DNA from: an uncultured delta proteobacterium
GTDB lineage: Bacteria; Desulfobacterota; Binatia; HRBIN30; BPIQ01
Length of the DNA stretch: 64,000 nucleotides
Assembly: GCA_963761335.1 (NCBI GenBank)
Contig: CAVXGR010000012.1
Location: 544,001 to 608,000, forward strand
Reading direction: 5' to 3'
Numbering within the stretch: position 1 is the stretch's first letter; the number at the start of each line of letters is the position of its first letter. A program made the position numbers and the translations under genes. A model generated the notes under the pieces. The model did not search any database. It had not been told where the DNA came from and saw only the letters and a list, made by a program, of their open reading frames with translations. Positions 36,367 through 60,302 of this stretch are shown one piece after another.

Positions 36367-36639
36367 CGCTGACCTACGTGCGCCGCGGCGGCGGAGCAAC
36401 ACCTTGGGTCGATGCCCCAATTGAGGTGAGAAACACTCCGAGGATGAAGAGGTCTTATAATAGTTCCTTTCTTAGCTCACCCTGGATTCTTACAGAGGCA
36501 GAGCCGCAGCCGAAAGATCGCACTTCTACGCGCGTAGTTCTACCTGCGGCCCTGGATAATTCCTGGGCCACAGCCGTGCCCGCACCAGTGCCCCTGCCCG
36601 TCCTTGGAGCGGGCGAGGAGAACGGGCGAAGCACGGTCA

Positions 36640-39462
36640 CTAGAAGATCGCCCCGATGGTGAAGTGCACGGCGCCGATCGACTCGCCGCTGCGGCGGTCG
36701 AGCTTGAAGCCGTACTCGAGGCTGATCGGACCGACCGGGGTGGCGTAGCGGAGTCCCAGCCCGGCGCTGCGGCGGAAGTCGTGGACGCTGATCGGGCCGT
36801 TCTGCAGGTAGAGGCCGCCGCCGTCGGCGAAGGTGACGCCGCTGAAGCCGAAGACCAACGGGAAGCGCAGCTCCGTGTTGACGTTCAGCGACAGGTCACC
36901 GCCGAGGGGCTCGCGCTCCGCGGGCCTGTTGCCCGGCGGCAGCGCGCCGCCGCCGACCGGGCCGATGCTGTTCTCGCTGAAGCCGCGCACCGTGGTGCGG
37001 CCGCCGAGGAAGAAGCGCTCGCGGATGGGCACCGTCAGCCGGCCGTCGAGCGGCCGTGCCCAGCCGGTGCGCAGCGAGTAGACGAAGGTCAGGTCGTCGA
37101 TCAGCGGAATGAACTGCGCGTGCTGGGTGGTGAGCTTGAGGAAGTCGACACCCGAGATCCCGGGGACCGTGTAGCGAAGCTTCACGGACTCGATGTAGCC
37201 CGTGGTCGGGTTGAACGGATCGTTGCGCCGGTCGAAGGTGAGCAGCGGCCCGAAGGTGATGGTGCGCAGAAAGCCCTGATCAGGGACGCGGCCGAGCACC
37301 AGGCGCGGGTCGGTGGCGACCTCGAGAGGCACGTCGAAGACGGTGCTCTGATCGAGCTGGAGCTCGCCGCCGACGGTGAGCGCCGGCAACAGCTCCCGCT
37401 GCAGCGAGGTGAGCAACGCCTGGCGCTCGATGCTGTAGCGCTGAATCTCGCGGACGCTCCGCTGCAGGATGAAGTTGCTCTGCGACACCCAGTCGCTGCC
37501 GAGCAAGCGCGGCTCGCGGAAGCCGAGGTTCGACAGATACTCGTCCGGGGTGAATCCGGTGGGCGAGAGGTTCATCTCGGCGCGCAGGCTGATCTTGCGC
37601 GCCGTGCCGAAGAGATTGTCGTAGCTCGCCTCGGTGAACAGGCGCAGCCCGAGCTCGGTGTTGTATCCGAACCCGTACTGGATGGATCCCGGCTCGCGCT
37701 CCTCGACGCGCACCGCGATCGGCGCCGGCTTGGCATCGGGAAGGGGCGGACCAACGTCCTCCACCGGTCGCACCGTCACCCGGCGGAACAGGCCGAGCTT
37801 GTAGACGTTCGCCTGCCCCTGCAGCAGACCCTCGGCGTTGTACGGATCGCCTTCCTTGAAGTCGAGCTCGCGCAGGATGATGCGGTCGAGGGTGAGCTGA
37901 TTGTTCTCGACGACCACCGGTCCGAGCTGCTTGTACTCCCCGGGCGCGGCGACGAAGTGCACCTTGGTCTCGACGATGCCCCCGGAGCGGACCTCGTCGA
38001 CGGTGTCATTCACCTCCGCGTCCGGGTAGCCGAGCCGCGCCAGAGCCAGGGTGAGCTGCGACGTGTCGTCCTCGACCGCCTGGGGGCTGTACGGCTCGCC
38101 GACCTGTGTCTTCAGCTTCGGAATCTCGAAACCCTGGGTGAAGTCGTCGAAGGTCAGGTCCTCGACGATGCTGCGCGGCCCCTCCTCGATGACGATGGTC
38201 AGGGTGATGGTGCCGTTCTCCTCGTCGAACTGGGTGCGGCTGTCGACCACCTGGGCCGACTGGAAGCCGAGGCGGCGATAGAGAAACCAGATGTTGCTCA
38301 GGTCCTCCCGCAGCGTGTCGTCGGCCAGTGCGCCGCTGCTGACGAGACCGTGCCAGCTGCGCGGCGCCGTCTGCATCACCTCGCGCAGGCGGCTGTCGGG
38401 AACCACGTCGTTTCCGGAGATGTCGATCTCGTCGATGAAGAACTGCTCTCCTTCGTCGACGTCGAGCTCGACAACCTCGGGGGTCTCGTCGTCGTTGATG
38501 ATGAGCTTGACGTCGGCGCGGTAGTAGCCGCGTTGCTGATAGGCGCGCTTGGCCTTCTGCGCCAGCGTTCGCCAGGTTCCGTCGGTGACGATCGGCCGGT
38601 TCTTCAGGTTGATCAGATCGAGGATGTCGCCCCGAGACATGGCGTGGTTGCCGCGGAAGACGAGCTCGTAGGGCGGCCCGGCGCGCACGTTCAGCACCAG
38701 CGTGCCCGAGCGGCTCCCGGCCGGCAGCTGCCAGTCGCTGTCCACGGCCGCCGTGTAGTAGTCCTTGTCGCGGTACATGGCGATGACGTTCTTGCGCGCC
38801 TGGCGCTCGGTATCGCGCTTGTACGGATCGCCGATGTCGACGCCGGTGGCGTCCCTGACCTCCTCGGCGGAGAAGACCGGCGTACCTTCGATGACGATCG
38901 CGCCGACCACCGTCGGCTCGTTTTCGCGGATGACGTAGGTGACGTTGACCTCGCGCCAGCCCTTGTCCCGGCGCTCGATGCGATAGTCGATCTGGGCGTC
39001 GAGATATCCGTCGCGGTGGTAGAGCTCGCGCAAGCGGTCGGCGGCCGCATGCAGTGTCTCGTCATCCGCCTCGCTTCCCACCGGCAGGCGCAGGCGCTTC
39101 AGCAGATTGGCCTTCCAGAAGTGGTCGTTCCCCTCGACGTCGACCGAGTTCACGAAGATCTTGCGCACCAGGTGGAAGACGACCTCAACGCCGCTCGGGT
39201 TGGGAATCACCTCGGGGTCGACGCTCGACCACAGGCCCTTGAGCTCGAGCAGGCGCACCGACTCCTGCAGATCCTGCGAGGTCAGCGGCTTCCCGACCTG
39301 CAGCGGCAGGAGCTCTCGCCGCAGAGAGCGCGGATCGATCCGCGCCGTGGCGTCGAAGCGGATGGCGGTGACCGGACGCCCCCACTGCTCGGCGGCATCC
39401 TGCGCATGTGCCGCCGCCACCAGGACGACGCACGCCAGGGCGACCGCGGAAGGCCGCCTCAC
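36640..39462 (-). CDS. Omp85 (BamA/TamA-type) outer-membrane assembly protein
   Basis: Signal peptide, several POTRA units (GN..., Y...GY), barrel with VRGF and a terminal Phe; GTG start overlaps the tamB stop. Confidence 0.9.
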   Translation of the reverse strand: MRRPSAVALACVVLVAAAHAQDAAEQWGRPVTAIRFDATARIDPRSLRRELLPLQVGKPLTSQDLQESVRLLELKGLWSSVDPEVIPNPSGVEVVFHLVRKIFVNSVDVEGNDHFWKANLLKRLRLPVGSEADDETLHAAADRLRELYHRDGYLDAQIDYRIERRDKGWREVNVTYVIRENEPTVVGAIVIEGTPVFSAEEVRDATGVDIGDPYKRDTERQARKNVIAMYRDKDYYTAAVDSDWQLPAGSRSGTLVLNVRAGPPYELVFRGNHAMSRGDILDLINLKNRPIVTDGTWRTLAQKAKRAYQQRGYYRADVKLIINDDETPEVVELDVDEGEQFFIDEIDISGNDVVPDSRLREVMQTAPRSWHGLVSSGALADDTLREDLSNIWFLYRRLGFQSAQVVDSRTQFDEENGTITLTIVIEEGPRSIVEDLTFDDFTQGFEIPKLKTQVGEPYSPQAVEDDTSQLTLALARLGYPDAEVNDTVDEVRSGGIVETKVHFVAAPGEYKQLGPVVVENNQLTLDRIILRELDFKEGDPYNAEGLLQGQANVYKLGLFRRVTVRPVEDVGPPLPDAKPAPIAVRVEEREPGSIQYGFGYNTELGLRLFTEASYDNLFGTARKISLRAEMNLSPTGFTPDEYLSNLGFREPRLLGSDWVSQSNFILQRSVREIQRYSIERQALLTSLQRELLPALTVGGELQLDQSTVFDVPLEVATDPRLVLGRVPDQGFLRTITFGPLLTFDRRNDPFNPTTGYIESVKLRYTVPGISGVDFLKLTTQHAQFIPLIDDLTFVYSLRTGWARPLDGRLTVPIRERFFLGGRTTVRGFSENSIGPVGGGALPPGNRPAEREPLGGDLSLNVNTELRFPLVFGFSGVTFADGGGLYLQNGPISVHDFRRSAGLGLRYATPVGPISLEYGFKLDRRSGESIGAVHFTIGAIF

Positions 39463-42400
39463 TTCACATCCCCCGGGCAGAGCCCCACCACCGAGAGGCA
39501 GGGAAGATGGCGGAAGCGGTGGCGGAACTTGATGTCGCCGCCGAAGGTGCCCGCCTGCGACTCGGTCTGGCTCTTCCACTGCCCCTGGACGGATATCGAC
39601 GGCGTCAGCTGGTACTCGAGGCCGGCGCTGTTGCGCGTCTCCGCACCGAACGTGCTTCCCACCGTGGCGCTCAGCTGCTCGGTGATGTCCTTGCCGATGG
39701 TCAGACGCGGCTCGAAGGAGCCGGTGGTCGGCGAGAAGGTGGGCTCGATCTGCAGCCGGTCCACCGGCAGCACCTGGGTGATGTCGCGGCTCAGCTGTCG
39801 GCCGTAGAGCGACGGCGCCAGAGAAAGGATGTCGGCGGCAGCGGCGCCGCCACCGGCGCGCTGCAGCTGGGCCGAGGTCTTGCCCAGAGTGAGCAGGGCG
39901 AAGACGTCGGTCTGCGTCAGGTTCGCGTCGTCAGAGCTGAGGACGACGCGAAAGTTCTGCATGGTGCCGACCACCTGCGCGGTGACGTCGTAATCCGTCT
40001 CCGCCGTCTGCACGGTGGCGGTGGCGGTGAAGTGCAGATCCGGGTTGATCTGCGGCTGGTTGTTGAAGTCGATCGTGCCCTCGATGAGCTCGAGCTGCTC
40101 GCGGCCGACGACCACCTGCCCGGAGAGCAGCTCGACGCGCCCGTCGAGCCGCGGCGCCGCGGCGGTGCCGAGAACCCGCAGGTCGACGCGGAACTCGGCG
40201 GTGGCTACCGGGGTGTCGACATAGACGCCATCGGTCGCCACCACGTGCAGGTTGAGACGGACGGTGGTGCCGCCCTTCTGCGTCGGCCGGCCGACCCGCT
40301 GCACCTGGCGGCGCAACGACGGCATCAGGTCCTGCAGGCCGATGTCGCGGCTGTAGACGGCGCTGAGAATGGTGATCTGCCCGTCCACGGTGAGGTTCGA
40401 CCAGCTCCCCGTGACCTTGCCGGTCCCGGAGAGCCGGTCCTCGAGATCTTCGAGAAAGCCGGTGCTGATATCGACGAACTGCCAGCTCAGATCCGGGCCG
40501 GTCGCCATGTCCACCCCGCCCTGCACCGAGAAGTCGCCGCCGCCGAGCTTGCCCTGGATGCCGGTGACCTCGATCTGGTTCTGGTGCAGCTGGAAGCTGC
40601 CGTTGGCGTCGGTCACGCCGAAGGGAAGCCCGAAGTCGATGGCGAGGTTCTGCAGGTTGCCGCCGCCGCTCAGCGACCAGGCGCCGCCGCTGCGGCGGAT
40701 GTTGGCGTCGACGTTGAGATGACCGCGGGCGGAGGTGATCACCTGGCCGGCGAGCTCGAGGATCGCCGCGTCGGTGTCGGCGGTAACGTTCACCTGCATC
40801 GGGCCGCCCAGCTCGACGTAGCCGCTCGCCTGCAGGCGGCCGAGAGCGCCGCCGAGCTGCAGAGAACCGATGTCGAAGCGGCCCTTGTGGCCGGTGATCA
40901 CCACGGGTTGCTGGGCGCTCAGCGCCAGGCCGGAGCGGCTGATCTCGAGCTGCGGCAGGCGCAGCTCCATGTCGAGGGAGGCGGTCGGCTCCGAGAGCCT
41001 GCCCTTGGCGGTGAGCGTTCCGCTGGTGCGGACGGCGAGATCGGCTTCGGGCGACAGGGCCGGACCGAGGTCGACGGTATCGAGGATGACTTCGAAGTCG
41101 TAGGGATAGCCGGCGGCGCTGCGCACCGTGCCGTCGGCGACGAGCTTCTGCGAGGGCGTGCCGATGTGCAGGCTCCAGCCCTGGGGCACCGACTGGGCCT
41201 TTGCGGTGACCTGGCCGATGTCGCGATTCTCGACCTTCACGTCCTGAAGGATTACCTGGGCCTCACCCGCGGGCTGGCGGAGGCTTCCGGTGATATTGGC
41301 CTGGACGACGGCGGTGCCCTCGAGGTTCTGCCCCATCTTCTGGATGAAGCCGAAGCCGTCGAGGGCCCAGGGCATCGACTGCGCCTGCAGCGACACCTGC
41401 TCGGTTCCGGTGCCATGCCCCTCGAGCGTGAGCGTCTCTCCCTCGCGGTGTTGGATCTGCGCGTCGACCTTCCAGCTCTTGCCGGTGACCTCCACGTCGG
41501 CGTGCACCGAGGAAAACCGCTCCGTGGCCAGCGCCAGCGGCTTGCCGTTCAGCTGGCCGCTGAGCTGCAGATTGCTCCATTCTCCCTGGGCGCTCGCCTG
41601 TGCGGTCAGCTCGCCCGACATGTACGGCAGGTCGAGACCCAGTCCGTTGGCCACCGTCCACATGGCCTCGAGGTCGACGTTCTGCACATCCACCTGCCAG
41701 GAGTTCTCCGCGCCGTTCTGCAGGGCGACGCGCCCGTTCACCGCCGCCCGCCCGCCCACGGCACGCACCTCGATCTGCTTGGCGACGAGATCTTTCTCCG
41801 TCGCCTCGAAGCCGCCGCTGACGGCGTCGATGCGCACCCCCTGAACCACCACGCCATTGGCGGCAATGTCGCCGCTGATCGCCGGCGAAGAAGTGGTGCC
41901 GCCGATGGCGGCGGTCAGACGCACGGAGCCACCCTGCAGGGTGGGCTCCAGGGGCCGGAGCACCGCGGTGTTGGGCACGGAGATCTCCACATGGCCGTCC
42001 AGAGACTGGTTCGCCCCGACCTGAACCTTCGCCTGGATCGCCTCCGCGCCGTTCAGCCGAACGCTGGCGTCGGCGCTGCCGCTGCCGCCGGCGAGGCTCG
42101 CCTCGGCGTGCGCCGCGACCTCGAGCCCGCTGCCCGCGTACGAGGCGCGGCGCACTCCCTGCAGAGCGGCATCGAAATTTCCCTGCTCGACGGCGAACGG
42201 CGAAATGGTGCCCGCCGCCGTCAGCTCGGCACTGCCGCTCCCCTCGAGATTGGCGACGCCGAGCCGCGGCCCGAGAGCGGCGAGGTCAATGCCGCTGACC
42301 TGGACCTTGGCGTCGAACGGATAGGCGCCCTCGATCGTCAGCGCCGCGTTCCCGGCGAGCTGCAGGCCCTCGCCGCGGACATCCAGGTCGGAGACCTGCA

Positions 42401-43310
42401 GATGCTTGTCGCCGTAGTCGAGATTGCCGGCGAGGAGGGTGCCGCGATAATCGTCGTAGCGCCAATCCCTGACGGCGACCTTCGCCTGCACCCGGGGCTC
42501 GAGGAGATCGCCGCGGAGCGTCCCGGAGACCGACAGCTGGCCGGCGACCGGGGCCTGCAGGCCGAGCAGATCGGCCACCTTGCCGAGGGCGACGTCGGCG
42601 TCGACGGCGTCCAGGTGCGGCGCCGTGGACTTGGCGTCGATCGAGCCGAGATCGCTGCGCAAGGTCAGCTTGTCGACGACCAGGCCCTTCTGATCGACGC
42701 CGCCCTGGAGGGCGAGCTTCTGGACGCGCACCTGGCGCGGCCCGAGAGAGACGTCGATGGCCTCGCTGTGCAGCTCCACGATGGCGCGCCCGGCCTGCGT
42801 CTGCGCCGTCAGCTCGGCTCCCGGCGCCTCGATGGTCATCGGCTCCTCTCCGGGCAGCACCACCTTCAGGTGGCCGACGTCGAAGGACGACACATCGATC
42901 GAGGGCAGCGGCAGGATCGACTCGATCCCCTCCTCCGGCTTCTCCTCCGGCTTCTGCTCCCCGGCCGGCCAGCGGGTCGCGTCGACGATCAGGTTGCCGA
43001 GGTGTCCGCTCACCACCGGCTGGCGGCGCGTCAGGCTCTCTCCGGCTCGAACCCTCAGATCGACGTCGGAGAGCTGCAGGCTGGGGCTCTCGGGCTTGCC
43101 GATGGTGAGCTGGTCGAGATGCGCCGTCGTCTGCAAGATGTCTAGATGGAGGCCGCGGATGGAGACGTCCTGATCGGTCGCCTGTGCCAGCACGCCCTCC
43201 AGGCGCTGGCGCCCGAGCTCGACCAACCACGGCAGACCCCAGAACCACGCGAGCACCACCAGGGCAGTGATCAGCAGCACCAGGCCGAGCAGAACTCGGC
43301 GCCAGGTCAC
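39459..43310 (-). CDS. tamB: Translocation and assembly module TamB-family protein
   Basis: N-terminal TM, long beta-taco repeats, C-terminal DUF490-like region; adjacent to the Omp85 gene. Confidence 0.85.
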   Translation of the reverse strand: MTWRRVLLGLVLLITALVVLAWFWGLPWLVELGRQRLEGVLAQATDQDVSIRGLHLDILQTTAHLDQLTIGKPESPSLQLSDVDLRVRAGESLTRRQPVVSGHLGNLIVDATRWPAGEQKPEEKPEEGIESILPLPSIDVSSFDVGHLKVVLPGEEPMTIEAPGAELTAQTQAGRAIVELHSEAIDVSLGPRQVRVQKLALQGGVDQKGLVVDKLTLRSDLGSIDAKSTAPHLDAVDADVALGKVADLLGLQAPVAGQLSVSGTLRGDLLEPRVQAKVAVRDWRYDDYRGTLLAGNLDYGDKHLQVSDLDVRGEGLQLAGNAALTIEGAYPFDAKVQVSGIDLAALGPRLGVANLEGSGSAELTAAGTISPFAVEQGNFDAALQGVRRASYAGSGLEVAAHAEASLAGGSGSADASVRLNGAEAIQAKVQVGANQSLDGHVEISVPNTAVLRPLEPTLQGGSVRLTAAIGGTTSSPAISGDIAANGVVVQGVRIDAVSGGFEATEKDLVAKQIEVRAVGGRAAVNGRVALQNGAENSWQVDVQNVDLEAMWTVANGLGLDLPYMSGELTAQASAQGEWSNLQLSGQLNGKPLALATERFSSVHADVEVTGKSWKVDAQIQHREGETLTLEGHGTGTEQVSLQAQSMPWALDGFGFIQKMGQNLEGTAVVQANITGSLRQPAGEAQVILQDVKVENRDIGQVTAKAQSVPQGWSLHIGTPSQKLVADGTVRSAAGYPYDFEVILDTVDLGPALSPEADLAVRTSGTLTAKGRLSEPTASLDMELRLPQLEISRSGLALSAQQPVVITGHKGRFDIGSLQLGGALGRLQASGYVELGGPMQVNVTADTDAAILELAGQVITSARGHLNVDANIRRSGGAWSLSGGGNLQNLAIDFGLPFGVTDANGSFQLHQNQIEVTGIQGKLGGGDFSVQGGVDMATGPDLSWQFVDISTGFLEDLEDRLSGTGKVTGSWSNLTVDGQITILSAVYSRDIGLQDLMPSLRRQVQRVGRPTQKGGTTVRLNLHVVATDGVYVDTPVATAEFRVDLRVLGTAAAPRLDGRVELLSGQVVVGREQLELIEGTIDFNNQPQINPDLHFTATATVQTAETDYDVTAQVVGTMQNFRVVLSSDDANLTQTDVFALLTLGKTSAQLQRAGGGAAAADILSLAPSLYGRQLSRDITQVLPVDRLQIEPTFSPTTGSFEPRLTIGKDITEQLSATVGSTFGAETRNSAGLEYQLTPSISVQGQWKSQTESQAGTFGGDIKFRHRFRHLPCLSVVGLCPGDVK

Positions 43311-43453
43311 CTGGGTTCTCCGACCCGCATGTCAGTTTCCCATGACCGAACGGAAAGGCACCCCCTAGTACTATCCGGCGGCATTGGATGTGTTAAGACG
43401 GCGAGATTGAAGAAAGCAACGGCGATGGCGTCAATGTCTTCGAAGTCCAACCC

Positions 43454-44830
43454 ATGAGACGACCGGCGACTCTCTGCTCACTGCTGGCGGTGGCTTCCGC
43501 CGCACTTCTCTGCGGGCCGCCGCCGGTGCGCGCGGTATCGCCGCCGGAGTCGTTCGCGCCGATCGTGCGCGCCGCCGGCCCGGCGGTGGCCTACATCTTC
43601 ACCACACAGGCACGGCGGATGCGGCGCTTCGGCATGCCCGGGGATCCGTTCGACGATTTCTTCCAGCGATTTTTCGGGGACGAGATGCCGCAGGTGCGCC
43701 CGCAGCAGAGCCTCGGCTCGGGATTCATCATCAGCGCCGACGGCTACATCGTCACCAACGCCCACGTGATCGCCGATGCCGTCAGCATCCGTGTCCGCCT
43801 GCACGACAAGCGGGAGTACGAGGCGGAGCTGGTGGGCAGCGACGCCAAGACCGACGTGGCCTTGATCAAGGTCGACGGCACCCACCTGCCGACGGTGAAG
43901 CTCGGCCACTCCGCCGGCCTCGAGATCGGCGACTGGGTACTCGCCATCGGCAATCCCTTCGGCCTCGAGCAGACGGTGACCGCGGGAATCGTCAGCGCCA
44001 AGGGGCGGGTCATCGGCGCCGGCCCATACGACGACTTCATCCAGACGGACGCGTCGATCAATCCCGGCAACTCGGGTGGACCGCTGCTCGACTCCGACGG
44101 CGAGGTCGTCGGCATCAACAGCGCCATCTTCAGCCGCAGCGGCGGCAACATCGGCATCGGCTTCGCCATCCCCATCGACTTGGCGCAGCACGTGATCGCC
44201 CAGCTCCGCGAGCACGGCCGCGTCATCCGCGGCTGGCTCGGGCTCGAGACGCAGGACATCACTCCCGAGCTGGCGCGCAGCTTCGGGCTGCCGCAGGCCA
44301 GCGGCGCGCTGGTGGTGCAGGTGGCTCCGGGGGGCCCGGCGGGCGAGGCCGGAATGCGGCGCGGCGACGTGGTCATCGCCTACGCCGGAAAGCCGGTCGC
44401 CGACAGCCGCGGGCTCCGCAGCCTGATTGCCGACGCTCCCATCGACGAGCAGGTCACCCTGCGCATCGTGCGCGACGGCCGCCAGTACTCGGTGCGCGCC
44501 AAGGTGTCCGGCATTCCGGGGGAGGCGGCGCGCCAGACGCGCCGCTCCGGTGAAGGCGGATGGGGCTTCGAGGTGTCGGAGCTGACGCCGCTGCTGGCAC
44601 GGCGCGCCGGCATACCGCCCGGTGTGCGCGGAGTCATGGTCACCGGGGTGACCGAGGGCGGCTCGGCGGCGGCGGCCGGCGTCGCCGAAGGCGACGTGAT
44701 CCGCGAGGTGAACCGCCGTGCGGTGACCTCCGTGGCGCAGCTGCAAGCCGCCGTGCGCCACACCGGCGAGCAGCTTCTCCTGCTCATTCAGCGGGGTCGA
44801 GGCGCCGGGTTTCTGCTGCTGCAGAGATAG
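43454..44830 (+). CDS. HtrA/DegP-DegQ serine protease with two PDZ domains
   Basis: TNAHV, TDVAL, QTDASINPGNSGGPL. Confidence 0.95.
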   Translation: MRRPATLCSLLAVASAALLCGPPPVRAVSPPESFAPIVRAAGPAVAYIFTTQARRMRRFGMPGDPFDDFFQRFFGDEMPQVRPQQSLGSGFIISADGYIVTNAHVIADAVSIRVRLHDKREYEAELVGSDAKTDVALIKVDGTHLPTVKLGHSAGLEIGDWVLAIGNPFGLEQTVTAGIVSAKGRVIGAGPYDDFIQTDASINPGNSGGPLLDSDGEVVGINSAIFSRSGGNIGIGFAIPIDLAQHVIAQLREHGRVIRGWLGLETQDITPELARSFGLPQASGALVVQVAPGGPAGEAGMRRGDVVIAYAGKPVADSRGLRSLIADAPIDEQVTLRIVRDGRQYSVRAKVSGIPGEAARQTRRSGEGGWGFEVSELTPLLARRAGIPPGVRGVMVTGVTEGGSAAAAGVAEGDVIREVNRRAVTSVAQLQAAVRHTGEQLLLLIQRGRGAGFLLLQR

Positions 44831-45049
44831 GTGCGGGCCCGCCGACGGGACCGGGACCCTTGACCCTTCGCCGGGGGAATATTAATTCGGCGCGGAGCAC
44901 TTCAGTCGCTGGCGACCTCACCGCCCCGCGTTGAGTGCCGCAGTGGAGGCACCATCGTCCAGGCACATCACATAGGAAGCGGTCAGGGGTCGGAAGAGCA
45001 AGCGGGCGGCAGCGGCGCTCCGCGGCGCCACCGCCGCTGGGTTTCGCTC

Positions 45050-46048
45050 ATGGTCGTCGTCGGCCTGGGCGTGCTGGTGCTGCTCTTCGTGCTCGCCGAC
45101 ACCCGCGCCCTGCTGCGCACCATCGAGCAGATCAATCCGTGGCTGCTGATCCTCCCGGTCCTGGCCACCTTGGGCAGCTATCTGGCGATGTCGAAGTCGT
45201 ACCAGGGAATCGCCCACGCCGCCGACTGCCCGTTTCCCTTCTGGGAGATGCTCAAGATCAGCTTCGTGGCCAACTCGATGAACTACATGGTGGCCACCGG
45301 CGGCCTCAGCGGCTTCGCCGCGCGCCTCTACTTCTTCACCCGCCGCGGCATTTCCGGGAGCACCGCGACCTCGATCTCGCTGGCCCAGGGGTTCATCACC
45401 AACGTCACGCTGCTGCTCTTCATTCTGATCGGCTTCGGCTACCTCATCGCCTCGGCGCGGCTCTCGCCGGCGGCGCTGGTGACCACTTCGATCCTCCTCG
45501 GGCTCTGCGTCGCCGCCACCATCATCTGCATCGTCTTCCTCTTCCGCCGGCGCCTGCGCCGTCGTGTCATCTTCGTCCTCTCGCAGACCGCCGACCGACT
45601 GCTGCACCGCTTCCTGCCGCGTTACAAGCCGGCGCGCACGCGCATCTGGCGCTTCCAGCGCAACTTGAACCTCGGCATCGACTTCCTGCTCGACCGCCGC
45701 ACGCACATGATCGCGCCGACCATCTGGATCCTGATCGACTGGCTACTGACCATGGGCATTCTCGAGTTCGCCTTCTTGTGTGTCGGCTACCCGATCTCCT
45801 TCAGCGTGCTGATCATCGGCTTCGCCCTCGGCCTGACGCTGTCCTTGATATCGATCATCCCCGCCGGCCTCGGTGTCATGGAGGGCTCGATGGCGGCGGT
45901 GTTCACCAGCCTCGACGTCCCCTTCGAGACGGCCGTGGTCGCCGTGCTGATCTTCCGCGTCGCCTTCCACGTCATCCCCCTGGTGACCAGCGTGTTCTTC
46001 TTCCACGGCCTCTTCGTCGAGGGCCGCGCCCACAGCGGCGAGGGCTGA
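45050..46048 (+). CDS. Lysylphosphatidylglycerol-synthase TM (UPF0104) flippase-like membrane protein
   Basis: Multiple TMs; PAGLGVME and LIFR motifs; start uncertain. Confidence 0.8.
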   Translation: MVVVGLGVLVLLFVLADTRALLRTIEQINPWLLILPVLATLGSYLAMSKSYQGIAHAADCPFPFWEMLKISFVANSMNYMVATGGLSGFAARLYFFTRRGISGSTATSISLAQGFITNVTLLLFILIGFGYLIASARLSPAALVTTSILLGLCVAATIICIVFLFRRRLRRRVIFVLSQTADRLLHRFLPRYKPARTRIWRFQRNLNLGIDFLLDRRTHMIAPTIWILIDWLLTMGILEFAFLCVGYPISFSVLIIGFALGLTLSLISIIPAGLGVMEGSMAAVFTSLDVPFETAVVAVLIFRVAFHVIPLVTSVFFFHGLFVEGRAHSGEG

Positions 46049-46296: not shown

Positions 46297-47562
46297 ATGA
46301 GGATGAGGATCGGCATGCGCAAGAGACTGGCGAGCTCGGCATTGGTCGTCGCGGTCGCCCTGCTGGTGCCGGCGCTGACCGTTGCGGCGGCGCCGGCGAC
46401 CCTGGGCAGGATCACCGCCAAGGCGGCGATCCTGATGAATCGGCACACCCATGAGGTGATCTGGCAGCGGAACGCCGATCTGCCGTTGCCGCCGGCGAGC
46501 ACCACCAAGGTGCTGACCACGCTCGTGGCCCTGCGCAGTGCCCACCTCGACGACGTTTTCACGGTGAGCGAGGAGGCGGCGCAAGCGCCGCCGTCCAAGG
46601 TGCATCTGCGGCCCGGATGGCGGCTGACGCTCGAGGACCTCGCCTACGCCATCCTGCTCAACTCCGCCAACGACGCCGCCGAGGTGGTGGCCGAGAACGT
46701 CGCCGGATCGATCCCGGCGTTCGCCCGCCGCATGATGCGTCAGGCGCGCCAGGTGGGCGCCGTGAACAGCTTCTTCGTCAACCCACACGGCCTTCCCGCC
46801 GCGGGCCACGTGTCCACCGCCCGCGACCTGGCGTTGATCTTCGACGAGGCGCTCCAGGAGCCCGAGTTTCGCAGGATCGTCTCGACCCAGCGCATGGTCA
46901 TCGAGCCGGAACGCGGATTGCGGCGACCGATCCGCCTGCACAATCACAACCGCCTGCTGGACCGCTACAAGGTGCCGGTGGTGGGCAAGACGGGATGGAC
47001 GATCGCCGCCAAGAAGTGCTTCGTCGGCGCCGCCCTGCCCGACACGGGGCCCGAGATCCTGGTCGCCGTTCTCGGCTCGAAGGATCTGTGGGGCGACGTG
47101 ACCAAGCTGCTGAACTACGGACTTTCCGGCGATCGTTTCCCCGAGCCGCCCGACCTGCAGATGGCGCAAGCAGACGCCGATGCGGTCCCCGAGCCGCCGC
47201 CGGTCGGCGCCGGAGACAGCGAGGAGCTCAGCCCGGCGCCGCCGCGGCGCGCGCACCGACACGCGCATCGGCCGGCGCTGCGGAGCGCTCCTGCGTCGCC
47301 GGCGTCAGAGAACGGCTCGCTGCAGAGCTACGCCGTGCAGCTGGCCACATTCGAGAGCCCCGATCGCGCCCGCGAGCTGGTCTCGGCGGCAGAGCGCAAG
47401 GGCTACAAGGCCCGCATCCGCCGCATCGCCCGCTCCAACCGCACCATGTACCGCGTCACCATGGGCGATTTCGCCAGTCACGGCGCCGCCCGTTCCGCTG
47501 CGGCGCGCATGCGCCACGAGTACGAAGACCTCCGCCCGCTGGTGGTCGCCCCCTCGACGTAA
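46297..47562 (+). CDS. D-alanyl-D-alanine carboxypeptidase (S11) with C-terminal SPOR domain
   Basis: ASTTK (SxxK), SAN (SxN), KTG; YAVQLATF..YRV SPOR motif. Confidence 0.92.
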   Translation: MRMRIGMRKRLASSALVVAVALLVPALTVAAAPATLGRITAKAAILMNRHTHEVIWQRNADLPLPPASTTKVLTTLVALRSAHLDDVFTVSEEAAQAPPSKVHLRPGWRLTLEDLAYAILLNSANDAAEVVAENVAGSIPAFARRMMRQARQVGAVNSFFVNPHGLPAAGHVSTARDLALIFDEALQEPEFRRIVSTQRMVIEPERGLRRPIRLHNHNRLLDRYKVPVVGKTGWTIAAKKCFVGAALPDTGPEILVAVLGSKDLWGDVTKLLNYGLSGDRFPEPPDLQMAQADADAVPEPPPVGAGDSEELSPAPPRRAHRHAHRPALRSAPASPASENGSLQSYAVQLATFESPDRARELVSAAERKGYKARIRRIARSNRTMYRVTMGDFASHGAARSAAARMRHEYEDLRPLVVAPST

Positions 47563-47619
47563 GCGCGGTCGGTGACTCGGTGACCGAGGAACCGAGCCAC
47601 TGAGACACAGTACCGCGCC

Positions 47620-48897
47620 TCACTCCACAGCGGCGCGGATGAGGTGAACGAGCTGGATGTTCTCGCTGTGTCCGGTCAGGCGCGCCGTGATGGCGCCGCG
47701 GATCGGGCGGCCGAGGAGATAGAAGTCGCCCATGATGTCGAGGATCTTGTGGCGCACGAACTCGTCGGGGAAACGCAGGGTGGTGTTCACCACCCGCTCG
47801 TCGTCGACGAGAATGCAGTTGTCGAGGCGGCCGCCGCTGGCGAGGCCGAGAGCGGCCATGGCCTTCATGTCGCGCAGGAAGCCGAAGGTGCGCGCCGGAG
47901 CGATCTGCTCGCGGAAGGACTCCGGTCCGTCGTAGTCGTAGCGCAGGCGCTGCTCGCCCACCGGCGGCGGATAGCGCAGCGTGTAATCGATGCTGAAGCC
48001 ATCGGCCGGATCGATGCGGATCATCTCCCCCGACTCCTCGCCGACGCACAGGGGCTCGCGGATGACGATCTCTTCCAGCGGCGCCACCTGCTCTTCGATG
48101 CCGGCGCTCTCGATCAGCTGGCAGAACTCAATCGCCGAGCCGTCCATGATCGGCACCTCGCCCTGCACCTTCACCAGCAGGTTGGTGATGCGGTAGGCGT
48201 GCAGAGTCGCCAGCAGGTGCTCGACGGTCTTGGCACTGACGCCGTTGCGGTGCAGTCCGGTGGCGTAGCCGGTCGAGTCGACGAAGTCGACGCGGGCGGG
48301 AACGGTGTCGGCGGCCGCCAGGCTGCCGAAGACGATGCCGCTGCCCGCAGGCATCGGCTGCAGGATCAGGCCGGTCTTCACCCCCGAGTGCAGCCCGTGA
48401 CCACTGGCGACGACGCTGCGCCGCAGCGTCTTCTCGCGAAGCGCGGGCAAGGCCACGGTGGAGCCGGGCGCCGCGCCGCCGCCCTCCGGAGCGGCGCAGC
48501 CGTCCTCGGCATCCTCGCCGCGCGTGTGCCGCCGGGCATGGTGCTCGAGGGCGCGGTTGACGATGCGCAGCAGGCCGTCGAGGGGAAACGGCTTCTCGAT
48601 GAAATCGAAGGCGCCGAGCTTGGTGGCGGTCACCGCGGTCTCGATGTTGCCGTGCCCGGAGATCATCACCACTTCCGGGCCGGCGTTCTCGGCCTTCAGC
48701 TCGCGCAGCAGCTGGATGCCGTCGAGCTCCGGCATCCAGATGTCGAGCAGAACCAGCTCGGGGTGCTCGCGGCGCACGATCTCGCGCGCCACCATCCCGT
48801 CCTCCGCCTCGATGACGCGCAGCCCCTCGTCGGCCAGCACACCCCGCAGGGAAGCGCGAATGTCGGCTTCGTCATCCACCACCAGAACCGTCGGCAT
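47620..48897 (-). CDS. lpxC: Response-regulator receiver fused to UDP-3-O-acyl-GlcNAc deacetylase (REC-LpxC)
   Basis: REC: VVDDE, LLDIWMP, MISGHG, EKPF. LpxC: G.GLHSG, TVEHLLA, DGSA, IAPARTFGF, EFVRHKILDIMGD, GH. Single uninterrupted frame. Confidence 0.93.
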   Translation of the reverse strand: MPTVLVVDDEADIRASLRGVLADEGLRVIEAEDGMVAREIVRREHPELVLLDIWMPELDGIQLLRELKAENAGPEVVMISGHGNIETAVTATKLGAFDFIEKPFPLDGLLRIVNRALEHHARRHTRGEDAEDGCAAPEGGGAAPGSTVALPALREKTLRRSVVASGHGLHSGVKTGLILQPMPAGSGIVFGSLAAADTVPARVDFVDSTGYATGLHRNGVSAKTVEHLLATLHAYRITNLLVKVQGEVPIMDGSAIEFCQLIESAGIEEQVAPLEEIVIREPLCVGEESGEMIRIDPADGFSIDYTLRYPPPVGEQRLRYDYDGPESFREQIAPARTFGFLRDMKAMAALGLASGGRLDNCILVDDERVVNTTLRFPDEFVRHKILDIMGDFYLLGRPIRGAITARLTGHSENIQLVHLIRAAVE

Positions 48898-48929
48898 TGG
48901 ATCTCCCTTCTGTCGCCGCTACGTCCGCG

Positions 48930-51176
48930 TCACGCGCGAATGGCGTGCAAGGCGTTCTCGCGACGCCGCAGCGGCAGCTCGATGATGAAGCGGCTGCCGC
49001 GCGGGGCGTTGTCGCGCACGCGGAGGTAGGCCTGGTGATCCGCAGCAATTGCGGAGACGATCGCCAGCCCCAGTCCGGTGCCATCCTTCTTCGTCGAAAC
49101 ATACGGCTCGAACAGCCGTCCCCTCACCTCCGGCGGAATGCCACAGCCGTTGTCGGCCACCTCGAGCTGTACCGTGCCGATGCGCTCCCGGTACGAGGTC
49201 GAGATCTCGATGCGCGGCCCGCCGTCCTCCCCGGCACCCTGGCACGCCGCCACGGCATTGTCGAGAAGGTTGATCACCGCCCGCTTGATCGCCTCCCGGT
49301 CGATCTCCACCAGGGGCAGATCCGGCTCCGGAGTGAAGATGAAGCCGATGTCGCGGTGCCCCTCGCGGAAGAGGACCAGCGCCTCGTCGATGACCGCGTT
49401 GAGATCGTGGGGCGCCATGTCCGCGGGCGGCAGCCGGGCGAAGCTGGCGAACTCGTTGACCAGGCGCTTGAGCCCCTCCACCTGGCGGATGATGGTGCGG
49501 GTGCACTCGTCGAGCACCGAGCCGTCGCTGCCGTTGAGGATGCTCGCATAGCGTCTGCGCAGGCGTTGCGCCGACAGCTGAATCGGGGTGAGAGGATTCT
49601 TGATCTCGTGGGCGATCCGCCGCGCCACCTCGCGCCAGGCCTCCATGCGCTCGACGCGCAGCATGTGACTGACGTCGTCGAAGAAGACCATGACACCGAG
49701 GCGTGCCCCGGCCTCGTCGCGCAGCACGGCGACGGTCACCAGAGCCGTGATGATGCGCTGACCGCCGCTGAGCTTCACCTGGCGTTCCACTTCGTCCTGC
49801 TCGCCGCGCGCCACCACGCCGATCATCTCGCCGACATCGCGCAGATCGTTGCGCGCCAAGAGGCTCTTCCAGTCGGCGCCGCGCGCGGCGCTTCCCTCGA
49901 CGCCCAGCATCTTCTCGGCGGCGCGGTTGATGGTGCTGATCTCTCCCCCCTGGCCGATGGAGACGACGCCGGCGGTGACGTTGGCGAGCACCGCCTCGAT
50001 ATAGCGGCGCCCATCCTCGAGCTCGCCGTGAATCTGCTTCAGCTCGGCGGTCATCTGATTGAACGAGATCACCACCGTGGCCAGCTCCTCGTCGGCCCCC
50101 GCCTCGATACGATGGTCCCAGTTGCCCTGGGCGACCTCGCGGGTGCCCTCGGAGAGCCGTTGCAGAGGCACGGTGATGCCCTTGGCGACGCGAAAGCCAA
50201 ACCAGGTGGCGGCAAAGATCACCACCAGGGTGATCAGCGTCAAGGTGAGGATGTAGCTGTTCTTCATCGGCTGCCGCAGCACGCCGAAGTGACGGAACTC
50301 CTGGTACGACTGGGCGATGTCGCGCGCCCGGCTGCTGACGCTCCGGCCGATGACATAGTCGACCAGAACGCTGCCCAGCAGCGCCCCGTCGGCGCCGCGC
50401 ACCGGCACCGCGGCGCGCACGATGTCGCTGCCCCCCGCCGGGTGGGTGACCACCATCTTCTCGCCCCGGTGCAGCTCGGCGAGCTCGTCGGCGGCGGGCG
50501 TGATGCGCAGGGCGCTCGTCTGCGGGTCCTCGGCGACGGCGACGATCTTGCCGTCGGGGGAGACGGCCTCGACGCGCGCCAGGTTGTAGGCGAGACAGGC
50601 GTTCTCGAGGCGGCGCTGCAGGGCCATGTGGTGCGGCTCGTTCCACAGCTGCGGCTCGGCGATGCCGTCGCCGATCTGCTCGCCGAAGTGAAGGGCGCTG
50701 TTGCCCGCCTGCTGATAGATGACCTGGGCGATGTCGAGGGCGCTGTTGAGGGCACTCTCGACGCGCACACTGAACCAGCTGTCGAAGGCGCGCGCCAGGA
50801 ACCCCTGCGAGACCATGAAAAGCAGGGTGGTGGGAATGAGAGTCAGGCCCACGAAGGCCACCACCAGCCGCGTGCGCAGGCGCGAGCCGAGGATTCCCCG
50901 CCGCCGCTCCAGCGCCAACTTGGCGAAGTTGCGGATGACCAGGAAGACGATGAGGACGAGGAGGATGAGATTGAGGTTGATGAGCAGGAAGAAGACGAGA
51001 TTGCCCGGCATCGAGCCGCTGTCGCCGAAACGCGGCATCCACGTCTCGACCACGGCAAAGAAGCCGAAGACGACGGCGGCCAGGAAGATCAGGAAGATCT
51101 CCCAGCGACGGCGGCGGCGCTCATCGGCCGGGATGCCGGGGGCCTCGCCGCTCAAGGTGAGTAGCCACCGCCACAT
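48930..51176 (-). CDS. ntrY: NtrY-like membrane sensor histidine kinase (TM, periplasmic, HAMP, PAS, HisKA, HATPase)
   Basis: AWREVARRIAHEIKNPLTPIQLSAQRL, DNGCG, FEPYVSTK..GTGLGL; NtrY-type N-terminus GSRLRTRLV...WF. Confidence 0.9.
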   Translation of the reverse strand: MWRWLLTLSGEAPGIPADERRRRRWEIFLIFLAAVVFGFFAVVETWMPRFGDSGSMPGNLVFFLLINLNLILLVLIVFLVIRNFAKLALERRRGILGSRLRTRLVVAFVGLTLIPTTLLFMVSQGFLARAFDSWFSVRVESALNSALDIAQVIYQQAGNSALHFGEQIGDGIAEPQLWNEPHHMALQRRLENACLAYNLARVEAVSPDGKIVAVAEDPQTSALRITPAADELAELHRGEKMVVTHPAGGSDIVRAAVPVRGADGALLGSVLVDYVIGRSVSSRARDIAQSYQEFRHFGVLRQPMKNSYILTLTLITLVVIFAATWFGFRVAKGITVPLQRLSEGTREVAQGNWDHRIEAGADEELATVVISFNQMTAELKQIHGELEDGRRYIEAVLANVTAGVVSIGQGGEISTINRAAEKMLGVEGSAARGADWKSLLARNDLRDVGEMIGVVARGEQDEVERQVKLSGGQRIITALVTVAVLRDEAGARLGVMVFFDDVSHMLRVERMEAWREVARRIAHEIKNPLTPIQLSAQRLRRRYASILNGSDGSVLDECTRTIIRQVEGLKRLVNEFASFARLPPADMAPHDLNAVIDEALVLFREGHRDIGFIFTPEPDLPLVEIDREAIKRAVINLLDNAVAACQGAGEDGGPRIEISTSYRERIGTVQLEVADNGCGIPPEVRGRLFEPYVSTKKDGTGLGLAIVSAIAADHQAYLRVRDNAPRGSRFIIELPLRRRENALHAIRA

Positions 51177-51201
51177 GAGTGCCCTATTCTACGGAAGCCG
51201 G

Positions 51202-51276
51202 TGGGGACAGGCAACTTTTCCCTCTCATGTCGCGTCGCGCCTGCTGACCTCGCGCCGGAAAAGTAGCCTGTCCCCA
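51202..51276. repeat. Short inverted-repeat element with TGGGGAC ends
   Basis: tggggacaggcaacttttcc / ggaaaagtagcctgtcccca, 19/20 match. Confidence 0.8.
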
Positions 51277-51283
51277 GCCGCGG

Positions 51284-52045
51284 TCAGGCCTGCGGGCGGC
51301 TGGGGAAGAGGCGTACCCGGCGCGCCGACGGCGGCGCCCCGCGCTCCATGGCCGCCACCATCTCGCGGGCGGCCTGGGCGGGGTCGCGCGCCTCGAGGAT
51401 GGAACGGCCGACCACCAGGTAATCGGCGCCGGCACGCACCGCCTCCTCGGGGGTCATGACGCGCTTCTGATCGTCGTGCTCCTCGGAGGATGGCCGCACT
51501 CCCGGGGTGACGATGACGAAGGGACGGCCGCACTCGCGGCGGATCTGGCGGACCTCCTTCGGCGAGGCGACGACGCCGTCCATCTCGGCCTCCTTGGCGA
51601 GCCGCGCCAGACGGACCACCTGGCTCTCCACCTTGCCCGATATGCCGACGCGTTTCAGGTCGGCGCGATTGAGGCTGGTCAGCACCGTCACCGCGAGGAT
51701 CTTCGGCCGGCGCAGGCCCTCGTTGCGGCAGACCTTGCGCACCTCGCTGACGGTGCGCTCCATCATCTCGAGGCTGCCGGAGGCGTGCACGTCGAACATG
51801 CGCACCCCGAGGCGGGCCGCCTCGACACCGGCCTTGGCGACGGTGCGCGGGATGTCGTGGAACTTGAGGTCGAGAAACACCTCGCCGCCGCGCTCGCGGA
51901 TGGTGCGCACGATGGCCGGTCCGCTGCGCAGGAAGAGCTGCTTGCCGACCTTGAACATGCCCACCTCGTTCATCAGCCGGGAGACGAAGCTCAGCGCCTC
52001 GCGCGGCGAGTCGACGTCGAGGGCGAAGATCAGGCGTGACCGCAT
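51284..52045 (-). CDS. pyrF: Orotidine-5'-phosphate decarboxylase
   Basis: FLDLKFHDIP.TV, VTVLTS, TPGVRP, DDQKR. Confidence 0.96.
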   Translation of the reverse strand: MRSRLIFALDVDSPREALSFVSRLMNEVGMFKVGKQLFLRSGPAIVRTIRERGGEVFLDLKFHDIPRTVAKAGVEAARLGVRMFDVHASGSLEMMERTVSEVRKVCRNEGLRRPKILAVTVLTSLNRADLKRVGISGKVESQVVRLARLAKEAEMDGVVASPKEVRQIRRECGRPFVIVTPGVRPSSEEHDDQKRVMTPEEAVRAGADYLVVGRSILEARDPAQAAREMVAAMERGAPPSARRVRLFPSRPQA

Positions 52046-52071
52046 GCCGCCGCGCCCGCTGAAAGGCCAGC

Positions 52072-53799
52072 TCAAGGGCGCTCCGTCGCCGCGGCGCGCA
52101 CCAGGGACACCGTCTGCTCGACGGCGTCGGCGAGCGCGATCTCGGTCGCCTTGGCCTGGCGCCGCGGCTTCCACTCGATGTTGCCGCGCTCCAGGGCCTT
52201 GGGCCCGACCGTCAGCCGCAGCGGTAGGCCGAGCAGATCGGCGTCCTTGAACTTGACCCCGGGGCGCTCCTCGCGATCGTCGAGGAGGACCTCGACCCCG
52301 GCGGCCTGGAGGTCCGCATAGAGCTTCTCCGCCACCGTCCGCTGCCGCTCGTCGGTCCAGCTCACCGGCAGCAGGTGCACGTGCGCGGGCGCCAGCGACA
52401 TCGGCCAGATGATGCCGCTGTCGTCGTGGTGCTGCTCGATGGCGGCGGCGGCGGTACGGGTGATGCCGATGCCGTAGCTGCCCATGATCATCGGCCGGGC
52501 CTCTCCGCTGGCGTCGAGGAAGGTGGCTCCCATGGGGACGCTGTACTTGGTGCCGAGATAGAAGATGTTTCCCACCTCGATCCCGCGGTGCTCCTCGAGC
52601 ACGCCGTCCTCGCACCGCGGGCACAGGTCGCCGGCGCGCGCCACGCGAAGATCGGCGAAATGCAGATCGGACAGATCGCGCTCCTGGTCGATGCCCACCA
52701 GATGATGATCCGCCTGGTTGGCGCCGCTGACGCCGCCGCGCAGGCCGCGCAGTCCGGCGTCGGCGAGCACCTGCACGTCGAGGCCGATGGGGCCGGCAAA
52801 GCCGACCGGGGCGCCGCTGGCGCGCTCGATGGCCGCCTCGTCGGCAAGCGCCACCCACTGCACCCCGAGAGCGTTCTTCAGCTTGATCTCGCTGAGCTGG
52901 TGATCGCCGCGCACCAGGGCGGCCACCGTGTCGCCGGCGTCGGTGACGTAGATGAGGGTCTTGATGAAGCGCTCGGGAGGCAGGCCGAGAAAGGACGACA
53001 CCTCCTCGATGGTGCGCTGCCCGGGCGTGTGCACCTTCTCGCGCCCGGCGGCGCTGCCGGGCGGCGCCGGCGCCGGCGCCGTGCGCGCCTCCGCCTTCTC
53101 GACGTTGGCGGCGTAGCTACAGCGGCTGCAGCTGACGATGGCGTCTTCACCGGAGGCCGCCAGCACCTGGAACTCGTGGGCGCGTGTGCCACCGATGGCG
53201 CCGGTGTCCGACTCCACCTGACGCGAGTCGAGGCCGCAGCGGCGGAAGATGCGCGCGTAGGTCTGCGCCATGTTCTGGTACTCGCGCTCGCAGTCCTCGG
53301 CGTCGACGTGGAAGGAGTAGGCGTCCTTCATGATGAACTCGCGACCGCGCATCAGGCCGAAGCGCGGCCGCACCTCGTCGCGGAACTTCACCTGGATCTG
53401 GTAGAGGTTGAGCGGCAGCTCGCGATAGGAGCGGATCTCGCGACGCACGATGTCGGTGACCACCTCCTCGTGCGTCGGCCCGAAGCAGAAGTCGCGATCG
53501 TGGCGGTCGCGGATGCGCAGGAGCTCTTTGCCGTACTTGTCCCAGCGGCCGCTCTCCTGCCAGAGCTCGGCCGGACAGACGGCCGGCATGAGGATCTCCT
53601 GCGAGCCGGCGCGGTCCATCTCCTCGCGGACGATGGACTCCACCTTGCGCACCACGCGCAGGCCCAGCGGCAGAAAATCGTAGATGCCGCGCGCCACTTG
53701 GCGGATCATGCCGGCGCGCAGCATGAGCTTGTGACTGACCACCTCGGCGTCCGAGGGATCCTCCTTCAGCGTCGGGATCAGTGTCTGGCGATAACGCAC
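52072..53799 (-). CDS. proS: Proline-tRNA ligase (with editing domain)
   Basis: GPTHEE, KFRDEVRPRFGLMRGREF.MKDAYSF, GSYGIG. Confidence 0.97.
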   Translation of the reverse strand: MRYRQTLIPTLKEDPSDAEVVSHKLMLRAGMIRQVARGIYDFLPLGLRVVRKVESIVREEMDRAGSQEILMPAVCPAELWQESGRWDKYGKELLRIRDRHDRDFCFGPTHEEVVTDIVRREIRSYRELPLNLYQIQVKFRDEVRPRFGLMRGREFIMKDAYSFHVDAEDCEREYQNMAQTYARIFRRCGLDSRQVESDTGAIGGTRAHEFQVLAASGEDAIVSCSRCSYAANVEKAEARTAPAPAPPGSAAGREKVHTPGQRTIEEVSSFLGLPPERFIKTLIYVTDAGDTVAALVRGDHQLSEIKLKNALGVQWVALADEAAIERASGAPVGFAGPIGLDVQVLADAGLRGLRGGVSGANQADHHLVGIDQERDLSDLHFADLRVARAGDLCPRCEDGVLEEHRGIEVGNIFYLGTKYSVPMGATFLDASGEARPMIMGSYGIGITRTAAAAIEQHHDDSGIIWPMSLAPAHVHLLPVSWTDERQRTVAEKLYADLQAAGVEVLLDDREERPGVKFKDADLLGLPLRLTVGPKALERGNIEWKPRRQAKATEIALADAVEQTVSLVRAAATERP

Positions 53800-60245: not shown

Positions 60246-60302
60246 GAGAGGGAGGCGTTTCCGCGAACACCGGTGCCATCAGGCACCAAGGGAGCAATTG
60301 TC

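Follow-up and report, generated by a model that had tools for sequence, protein, structure and literature searches.

An NtrX-type receiver fused to LpxC beside NtrY suggests phospho-control of the lipid A enzyme in Binatia and related bacteria

In a 64,000 nucleotide stretch of the genome of an uncultured delta proteobacterium of the class Binatia (GCA_963761335.1, contig CAVXGR010000012.1, positions 544,001 to 608,000 of the forward strand; hereafter the window), an open reading frame (ORF) at 47620-48897 on the minus strand encodes a 425 aa protein in which an NtrX-type receiver is joined to the lipid A enzyme LpxC, directly downstream of the gene for an NtrY-like histidine kinase. One polypeptide combines an intact phospho-receiver with the only, and intact, LpxC of the cell, an intact NtrY is kept alongside, and no other NtrX-type receiver was found. 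The pair is likely an NtrY/NtrX-type system in which NtrY sets the phosphorylation of the receiver carried by LpxC itself, a post-translational phospho-control that would act as an activity switch in the first place and on stability in the second. With NtrY setting the phosphorylation of this receiver, transcriptional control would have become post-translational, and the fusion suggests that a membrane sensor controls the LpxC enzyme rather than its gene.

Results

LpxC of the window genome carries a receiver domain

Analysis of the 425 aa protein with Pfam returned Response_reg at residues 4-113, LpxC at residues 156-420 and no further domain; the AAA+ (sigma54-interaction) and Fis-type helix-turn-helix (HTH) domains were absent, and no stop codon interrupts the frame. 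The receiver contains D8, D9, the phospho-acceptor D52 (in LLDIWMP), S80 and K102 (in EKPF), and the zinc and catalytic motifs of LpxC (E226 H227, H383 K384 D387 and H410) are present in an alignment to P. aeruginosa LpxC. The single ORF and all motifs claimed for it in a first-pass annotation of the DNA were recovered as described there. The roles of the EH, HKxLD and GH residues are presumably those of E78, H79, H238, D242 and H265 of E. coli LpxC. The best receiver model was that of NtrX (NF051870), which covered residues 3-124 only and scored 131 against a cut-off of 600, and the nearest solved structures were 4d6x and 5m7n, which we take to be Brucella NtrX. For the enzyme part, the lpxC model TIGR00325 gave 253.8 bits, above its equivalog cut-off of 187.25 (profile positions 2-274 of 297), PF03331 was matched over positions 2-266 of 268, and the predicted fold matches 7k99 with a root mean square deviation of 1.6 A over 276 columns. 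By all testable features the protein is a member of LpxC and, being devoid of AAA+ and HTH, not an NtrX, of which it keeps the receiver and the gene position beside ntrY.

The two domains had been proposed to be joined by a flexible linker of about 35 aa. Its flexibility was supported by an AlphaFold model, but its disordered part is shorter (about 18 residues, 132-149, pLDDT < 50), as the last receiver helix extends to residue 129. Length and sequence of the linker vary among fused proteins. GTG148 and TTG150 are the sole alternative starts in the linker and neither has a Shine-Dalgarno (SD)-like motif at usable spacing, in agreement with the earlier remark that a well-spaced internal ribosome-binding site is missing. 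GC content at third codon positions is even along the gene (receiver 0.91, linker 0.93, LpxC 0.91).

The window genome is 99% complete and the fusion is its sole LpxC match. LpxA and LpxB are encoded elsewhere, above cut-off, and the pathway therefore needs the deacetylase step; two genes (G000:C16:215223 and C17:343991) pass the LpxA cut-off. A separate ntrX was found neither in the window genome nor in any of 39 other genomes whose fusion was confirmed. Among the 94 receiver-bearing ORFs of the window genome, the fusion scored 166 bits and the next ORF 109 against a profile built of free NtrX receivers only. When a single free-NtrX receiver query was used at E ≤ 1e-31, one hit, located in the fusion, was obtained in 35 of the 39 genomes and none in the other 4, and the unfused control genomes gave one hit each (4/4); a further genome, G029, also gave one hit and is not counted among the 39.

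The fusion is widespread and both halves are conserved

The combination of Response_reg and LpxC, for which a wider search had been suggested, proved to be common. Both domains are present in 120 of the 120 best homologues at 65-78% identity (the window's own protein counted), and those that are named come mostly from Candidatus Binatia. LpxC was detected in 243 of the 251 genomes of a class sample; among the 150 class matches listed (103 more exist), 148 lie in open frames of at least 419 aa and the other two at contig ends. One genome (G133) has a stop within the LpxC part. In the wider phylum, 20 of 20 fetched regions, chosen for a long open frame, were fusions from 13 families, of which 14 were short forms like that of the window and 6 long forms with AAA+ between receiver and LpxC; ntrY was adjacent in three of them. 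Most of the remaining genomes of that sample have LpxC as a free protein. In the phylum to which a record named Nitrospinaceae belongs, receiver-AAA+-LpxC was found in 19 of 20 fetched regions, the remaining one being cut by a contig end, and ntrY was adjacent in 12 of the 20. Proteins named Syntrophorhabdaceae are found in a second group of short forms. Where database names are given, fused proteins are called either LpxC or NtrX, which hides the fusion.

Conservation was determined in 241 short and 168 long fusions, 409 distinct proteins in all, with the proteins of that second short-form group left out. D52 was kept in 407 of them, K102 in 408 and S/T80 in 407, while H383, K384, D387 and H410 were kept in all 409 and E226/H227 in 408. 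These patterns suggest that selection acts on both halves of the fusion. V163, G176, H233, Y235 and K243 are conserved in fused and not in free LpxC (G176 in 86 of 87 fused versus 3 of 82 free proteins, K243 in 85 of 87 versus 4 of 82), and three of the five lie in strands of the N-terminal half. They may mark a docking face, with shared ancestry as the alternative. Mutual-information analysis of covariation between the domains yielded no reliable inter-domain pairs among the 409 sequences (effective number about 144), and edge columns dominated the result.

NtrY accompanies the fusion

The gene directly upstream of the fusion, separated from its ATG by 32 nt, encodes an NtrY-like kinase that is intact, as had been reported: its full domain set is present, H523 lies in AHEIKNP, HisKA has an E-x-x-N motif and the H, N and G boxes are intact. 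It is the one NtrY orthologue of the window genome. Within the class, synteny with ntrY was complete, the kinase gene lying directly upstream of the fusion in 48 of 48 genomes with a complete fused ORF among the fetched sequences. Among further genomes searched for the kinase exactly one NtrY orthologue was present in 32 of 32; the fusion region was fetched for all but 5 of these, and for most it contained no ntrY. No receiver was encoded within 1.5 kb downstream of these kinases (0/30 loci). Wherever the kinase of a fusion genome was fetched, it carried an H-box of the form H-[ED]-x-[KR]-N-P together with the E/D-x-x-N motif (102/102).

The fusion probably arose from a sigma54-dependent regulator of lpxC

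In 15 of the 38 genomes with free lpxC that were examined, the gene is located no more than 4 kb upstream of ntrY, a count that includes two genomes picked after the linkage was seen and that short flanks make a lower bound. The full order lpxC-ntrY-ntrX was present in 6 of 20 extended regions, and two more cases were seen in another region set. In the 300 nt ahead of the gene, a sigma54 -24/-12 site is present for 18 of the 38 free lpxC genes, against 0.23 in shuffled sequence, but for 0 of 33 unlinked fusions and for 0 of 48 ntrY genes at the head of a fusion. Because the genomes are kin and not independent, the sigma54 and linkage counts are to be read as a description and not as a statistical test. 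An enhancer-like TGT-N8-ACA precedes free lpxC in 10 of 38 cases against 2.6 expected, a modest enrichment that is not relied on here.

In six lpxC-ntrY-ntrX regions the free NtrX kept GAFTGA or GSFTGA, the Walker B DE and the arginine finger (6/6). All three elements, in the case of Walker B its glutamate, are lost in the long fusions (39/39). As judged by these motifs the transcription output of the long fusions is dead, and a role of the long forms as transcription factors was rejected, AAA+ being degenerate in every one of the 39. Intermediates were also seen: an HTH remnant is present in 7 of the 39 long fusions, other forms have no HTH, and a protein of 491 aa (P0123) has the order receiver-HTH-LpxC, with the Fis-type HTH retained and AAA+ deleted.

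In a tree of LpxC alone, the fused domains were separated from free LpxC by one branch with an SH-aLRT (approximate likelihood-ratio test) support of 99, and in a receiver-plus-LpxC tree the support of the fused side was 100. A free LpxC of 290 aa without receiver (P0185) lies inside the fused clade and is either a fission or a fragment. These trees argue for a single origin of the ntrX-lpxC fusion. Short forms need 3-5 changes, and a single short clade was rejected by the approximately unbiased (AU) test (p = 0.0006), which was run on 65 rows under the simpler model LG+G4 with quick trees and was set after the trees had been seen. Since the short forms do not make up one clade, the receiver would have been kept each time AAA+ was lost. 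The long form likelier came first, because it has the domain order of NtrX. Taken together, an ancestral sigma54-dependent NtrX, encoded in a region of the order lpxC-ntrY-ntrX, may have activated lpxC; a single fusion of ntrX with lpxC may have followed, and the AAA+ domain may have decayed and been deleted more than once with loss of the sigma54 promoter. The regulator would have traded its transcription output for the enzyme that was once under its control.

Comparison with known systems

CheB works as an enzyme-output response regulator. With CheB, REC-GGDEF, REC-HD-GYP and RssB-like proteins (REC, receiver) the fusion shares a layout of receiver, flexible linker and a catalytic domain that is expected to switch on phosphorylation. 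It differs from these regulators in its output, as theirs are signalling enzymes whereas LpxC is an essential biosynthetic enzyme at a committed pathway step.

The only target of the sigma54 regulator DVU2934 of D. vulgaris is lpxC, and in S. fumaroxidans the operon orthologous to that of DVU2934 is directly preceded by lpxC (PMC3333781). Two further papers repeat the link between DVU2934 and lpxC. Dde_3003 likewise has lpxC as its single target, and lpxC was upregulated in a mutant of the kinase Dde_3000 (PMC4045070). The Desulfovibrio pairs DVU2931/DVU2934 and Dde_3000/Dde_3003 resemble the window system in being a kinase and a receiver protein dedicated to lpxC, with a sigma54 site upstream. 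Their control, however, is exerted on transcription by a sigma54 activator, and their LpxC is a free protein, whereas AAA+, HTH and sigma54 site are gone from the window fusion and the receiver lies within LpxC. DVU2931/DVU2934 appear to be orthologues of NtrY/NtrX, because of a synteny remark in PMC3333781.

NtrY/NtrX of Brucella, Rhodobacter sphaeroides and Caulobacter as well as Bordetella PlrSR have the same NtrY_N/HAMP/PAS kinase, a similar receiver and a link to the envelope. In R. sphaeroides, loss of NtrYX raised lpxC 8.8-fold and lipopolysaccharide (LPS) twofold, with no NtrX site at lpxC (PMC7240162). NtrY of Caulobacter is mainly a phosphatase (bioRxiv 2021.04.17.440287), and the phosphatase activity of PlrS is reported to be inhibited from the periplasm (PMC13001219). 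In contrast to alphaproteobacterial NtrX, which binds DNA, has a large regulon and in Rhodobacter affects lpxC indirectly, the output domain of the window system is the enzyme.

Known regulators of LpxC comprise proteolysis by FtsH/LapB/YejM in E. coli, activation by MurA in Pseudomonas, Ght in Neisseria and Lon in Alphaproteobacteria, and a 2025 review of lipid A regulation, which lists all of these, also names transcription (PMC12444477). Like the control proposed here these regulators are post-translational at the LpxC step, but all act in trans and none is known to use phosphorylation. In the window genome no match to the YejM family (PF11893) was detected; a motif search gave no LapB-like protein, although a divergent LapB could escape detection. 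PF18073 was matched once, by an N-terminal zinc ribbon read as RadA-like. Tails after GHxxN are mostly 13-14 aa long in fused proteins (153/240) versus 35-52 aa in 20 of 38 free LpxC proteins with this motif. With no YejM match, no LapB-like hit and no long C-terminal tail, the proteolysis route of E. coli was not found.

The terms 'fused', 'fusion' and 'response regulator' are absent from the main text of the review PMC12444477, and an LpxC term is absent from the 10 supplement files of a PeerJ two-component census (PMC4558063). No description of a receiver-LpxC fusion was found in the searchable literature, most subscription papers and bioRxiv supplements lying outside reach, where a mention in a census table is possible. 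Receiver-enzyme fusions are known, as is control of lpxC transcription by two-component systems, which has been published for Desulfovibrio and, as an indirect effect, for NtrYX in Rhodobacter; their union is undescribed in that literature and the fusion is the new part.

Proposed mechanism and alternatives

The fusion probably works like an enzyme-output response regulator. NtrY would sense an envelope signal and add phosphate to D52 or remove it, and the phosphate state would alter the packing of the receiver against the LpxC domain and thereby adjust the rate at which lipid A is made, with no need for new transcription. Among post-translational modes an intramolecular activity switch is placed first. 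Phosphorylation somewhat more probably raises the flux, with NtrY serving largely as a phosphatase brake; this sign follows from the analogy with Desulfovibrio alaskensis and Caulobacter. In AlphaFold models the predicted template modelling score (pTM) was 0.87 for the short form and 0.45 for a long form. As LpxC alone makes up about 0.61 of the chain, the value of the short form suggests a confidently placed receiver on the enzyme. A split-chain complex prediction of the receiver (1-128) and LpxC (150-425) gave a score of 0.01 and a mark of 0.32, with unfolded controls, and was given no weight.

That NtrY of Binatia, Syntrophorhabdaceae-like bacteria, Nitrospinota and related lineages has LpxC itself as its response regulator, that D52 phosphorylation switches the deacetylase directly, and that the family records a transcriptional circuit collapsing into allosteric control, we consider slightly better than an even bet. 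Several observations weigh against phospho-control of LpxC by NtrY. ntrY is unlinked in 17 of the 20 fusion regions of other classes and in 8 of the 20 regions of the Nitrospinaceae-containing group. Two fusions, P0139 (N) and P0146 (S), have lost the phospho-Asp, which means that some versions persist without it. The genome G321 holds a free lpxC in addition to a fusion. The long form shows no sign of packed domains, and the same contact may therefore not explain the ancestral state. As to the order of events, in the concatenated tree no more than one change between short and long follows from the starred branches, the tree of LpxC alone roots among short forms, and the AU test has the limits given above. 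Of the comparisons, the HD-GYP neighbour of DVU2931/DVU2934 was seen in 0 of 9 fetched ntrY regions, and the indirect effect of NtrYX in Rhodobacter, where lpxC rises on loss, does not fit the sign of a simple activator.

Two rival explanations accept the fusion as real. The receiver could be a passenger, i.e. a frozen accident that couples expression, in which it is phosphorylated for another purpose (as a phosphate sink or in signalling to a third protein) while LpxC works regardless. Adjacent genes fuse easily, free lpxC lies near ntrY in 15 of 38 genomes, LpxC also fuses with FabZ-type domains, and both the two proteins without Asp and the free LpxC inside the fused clade speak for this reading. 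However, the receiver stayed attached while AAA+ and HTH were deleted more than once, no fission into two genes was seen among the listed matches of the class sample, and the known target of the ancestral regulator is lpxC itself, making a mere passenger unlikely. Alternatively, the receiver could be a real partner of NtrY that only docks LpxC on the membrane kinase, and so localises or sequesters it in the way suggested for Ght in Neisseria, with no effect on catalysis or stability. That Ght localises LpxC at the inner membrane has been published (PMC12444477, section 10), no LapB-like protein was found in the window genome, and the linker is long and variable. Docking alone would not require the full phospho-site kept in nearly all of the 409 proteins, however, and G176 and K243 hint at a dedicated surface, which shared ancestry could also explain; we regard docking alone as quite unlikely.

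An assembly artefact, a deletion confined to one lineage or an internal start from which LpxC is translated separately, outcomes of the kind that the first-pass annotation had named as fatal to its proposal, is highly improbable. The stop in G133 would agree with it. Contigs of four DNA sequencing runs, which cover the stretch only in short pieces with none of the listed ones bridging the linker, weigh neither way. An artefact is refuted, though, by the presence of both domains in all of the best homologues, and the 409 distinct fused proteins and the complete synteny in the class show that the fusion is neither unique nor a mis-join. Against separate translation, an SD-preceded start lies ahead of the receiver in 67 of 81 short forms and ahead of the LpxC domain in only 7 of 81; the linker starts and the even codon composition of the window gene likewise lend it no support.

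If phospho-control by NtrY is correct, phosphorylation joins the known controls of LpxC, an antibiotic target, and the system points to a regulatory surface away from its active site; the signal sensed by NtrY would then report the status of LPS or of the outer membrane. How LPS is balanced outside E. coli and Pseudomonas (PMC12444477, section 10) and what the NtrY family senses would both be reduced to two proteins with one measurable output, the deacetylase rate, which makes both questions testable in vitro and in a laboratory strain of E. coli. The family further offers a clear natural series that starts with sigma54-dependent transcription and ends with the regulator fused to the product of the transcribed gene.

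Features of the locus and neighbouring genes

The features of the locus are listed in Table 1. The promoter-like site was the only one found in a scan of 47400-51600, with 0.1 expected in shuffles; it is a consensus match and putative.

Table 1. Position of the fusion gene, its domains and nearby features in the window
Feature	Position	Strand	Remarks
Receiver-LpxC fusion gene	47620..48897	-	425 aa, ORF and profile matches
LpxC deacetylase domain, complete, residues 156-420	47638..48432	-	No long C-terminal tail
Variable linker, ~residues 130-155	48433..48510	-	AAA+ and HTH domains sit here in longer relatives
NtrX-type receiver domain, residues 4-113	48559..48888	-	Pfam; solved relatives; conservation
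Ribosome-binding-site-like AAGGGAG	48903..48909	-	5 nt ahead of fusion ATG
NtrY-type membrane histidine kinase	48930..51176	-	748 aa, NtrY_N/HAMP/PAS/HisKA/HATPase
Sigma70-type promoter-like site TTGCCT-17-TAGAAT	51186..51214	-	Ends 10 nt upstream of kinase start

Genes for 3-deoxy-D-manno-oct-2-ulosonic acid (Kdo) synthesis and lipid A acylation had been placed about 4-11 kb from the kinase, and they lie 3.5-10.7 kb from its start, on the other strand and beyond pyrF and proS. Of these, kdsB and kdsA pass their cut-offs, and a KpsF/GutQ-family isomerase (kdsD-like) and two LpxL-like acyltransferases remain below theirs. This neighbourhood was set aside and is not counted as evidence for LPS control. 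Between the two LpxL-like genes lies an ORF (60273-60881, plus strand) that, like another at 35527-36420 (minus strand), has E-x-x-H motifs of ferritin-like appearance and no NCBIfam match at 1e-12. Convergent on the fusion is a gene for a D-Ala-D-Ala carboxypeptidase-like protein with an RlpA/SPOR-like C-terminus (46297-47562, plus strand), and this neighbour recurs in L015, L018, L023, L034, L036, L039-L041 and L052. Inspection by eye of 36640-46048 indicated an envelope cluster with a TamA/TamB-like pair, a DegP-like protease and an MprF-type flippase-like membrane protein. proS and pyrF (51284-53799) lie upstream of ntrY, and apparent proS and pyrF genes follow ntrY-ntrX in L055 and L071, which suggests an old shared neighbourhood of proS/pyrF and ntrY. 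An ORF that looks smpB-like by eye often follows unlinked ntrY (L223, L224, L225, L227, L239, L242, L244).

Three further loci deserve mention. In L061 an apparent ntrX duplicate with a kinase fragment lies 5 kb downstream of the first copy, possibly as an assembly duplication. A long NtrX-LpxC fusion is encoded on a 3-kb contig labelled Promethearchaeota archaeon (L042); the fusion groups with a sequence from Desulfobacterota, and the contig is probably a mis-binned bacterial one. In G321 (L161, L175, L237, L255) free lpxC with a sigma54 site lies ahead of ntrY with no ntrX after it, and a divergent receiver-LpxC fusion is found on another contig, representing a possible transition state, a transfer or a binning mix.

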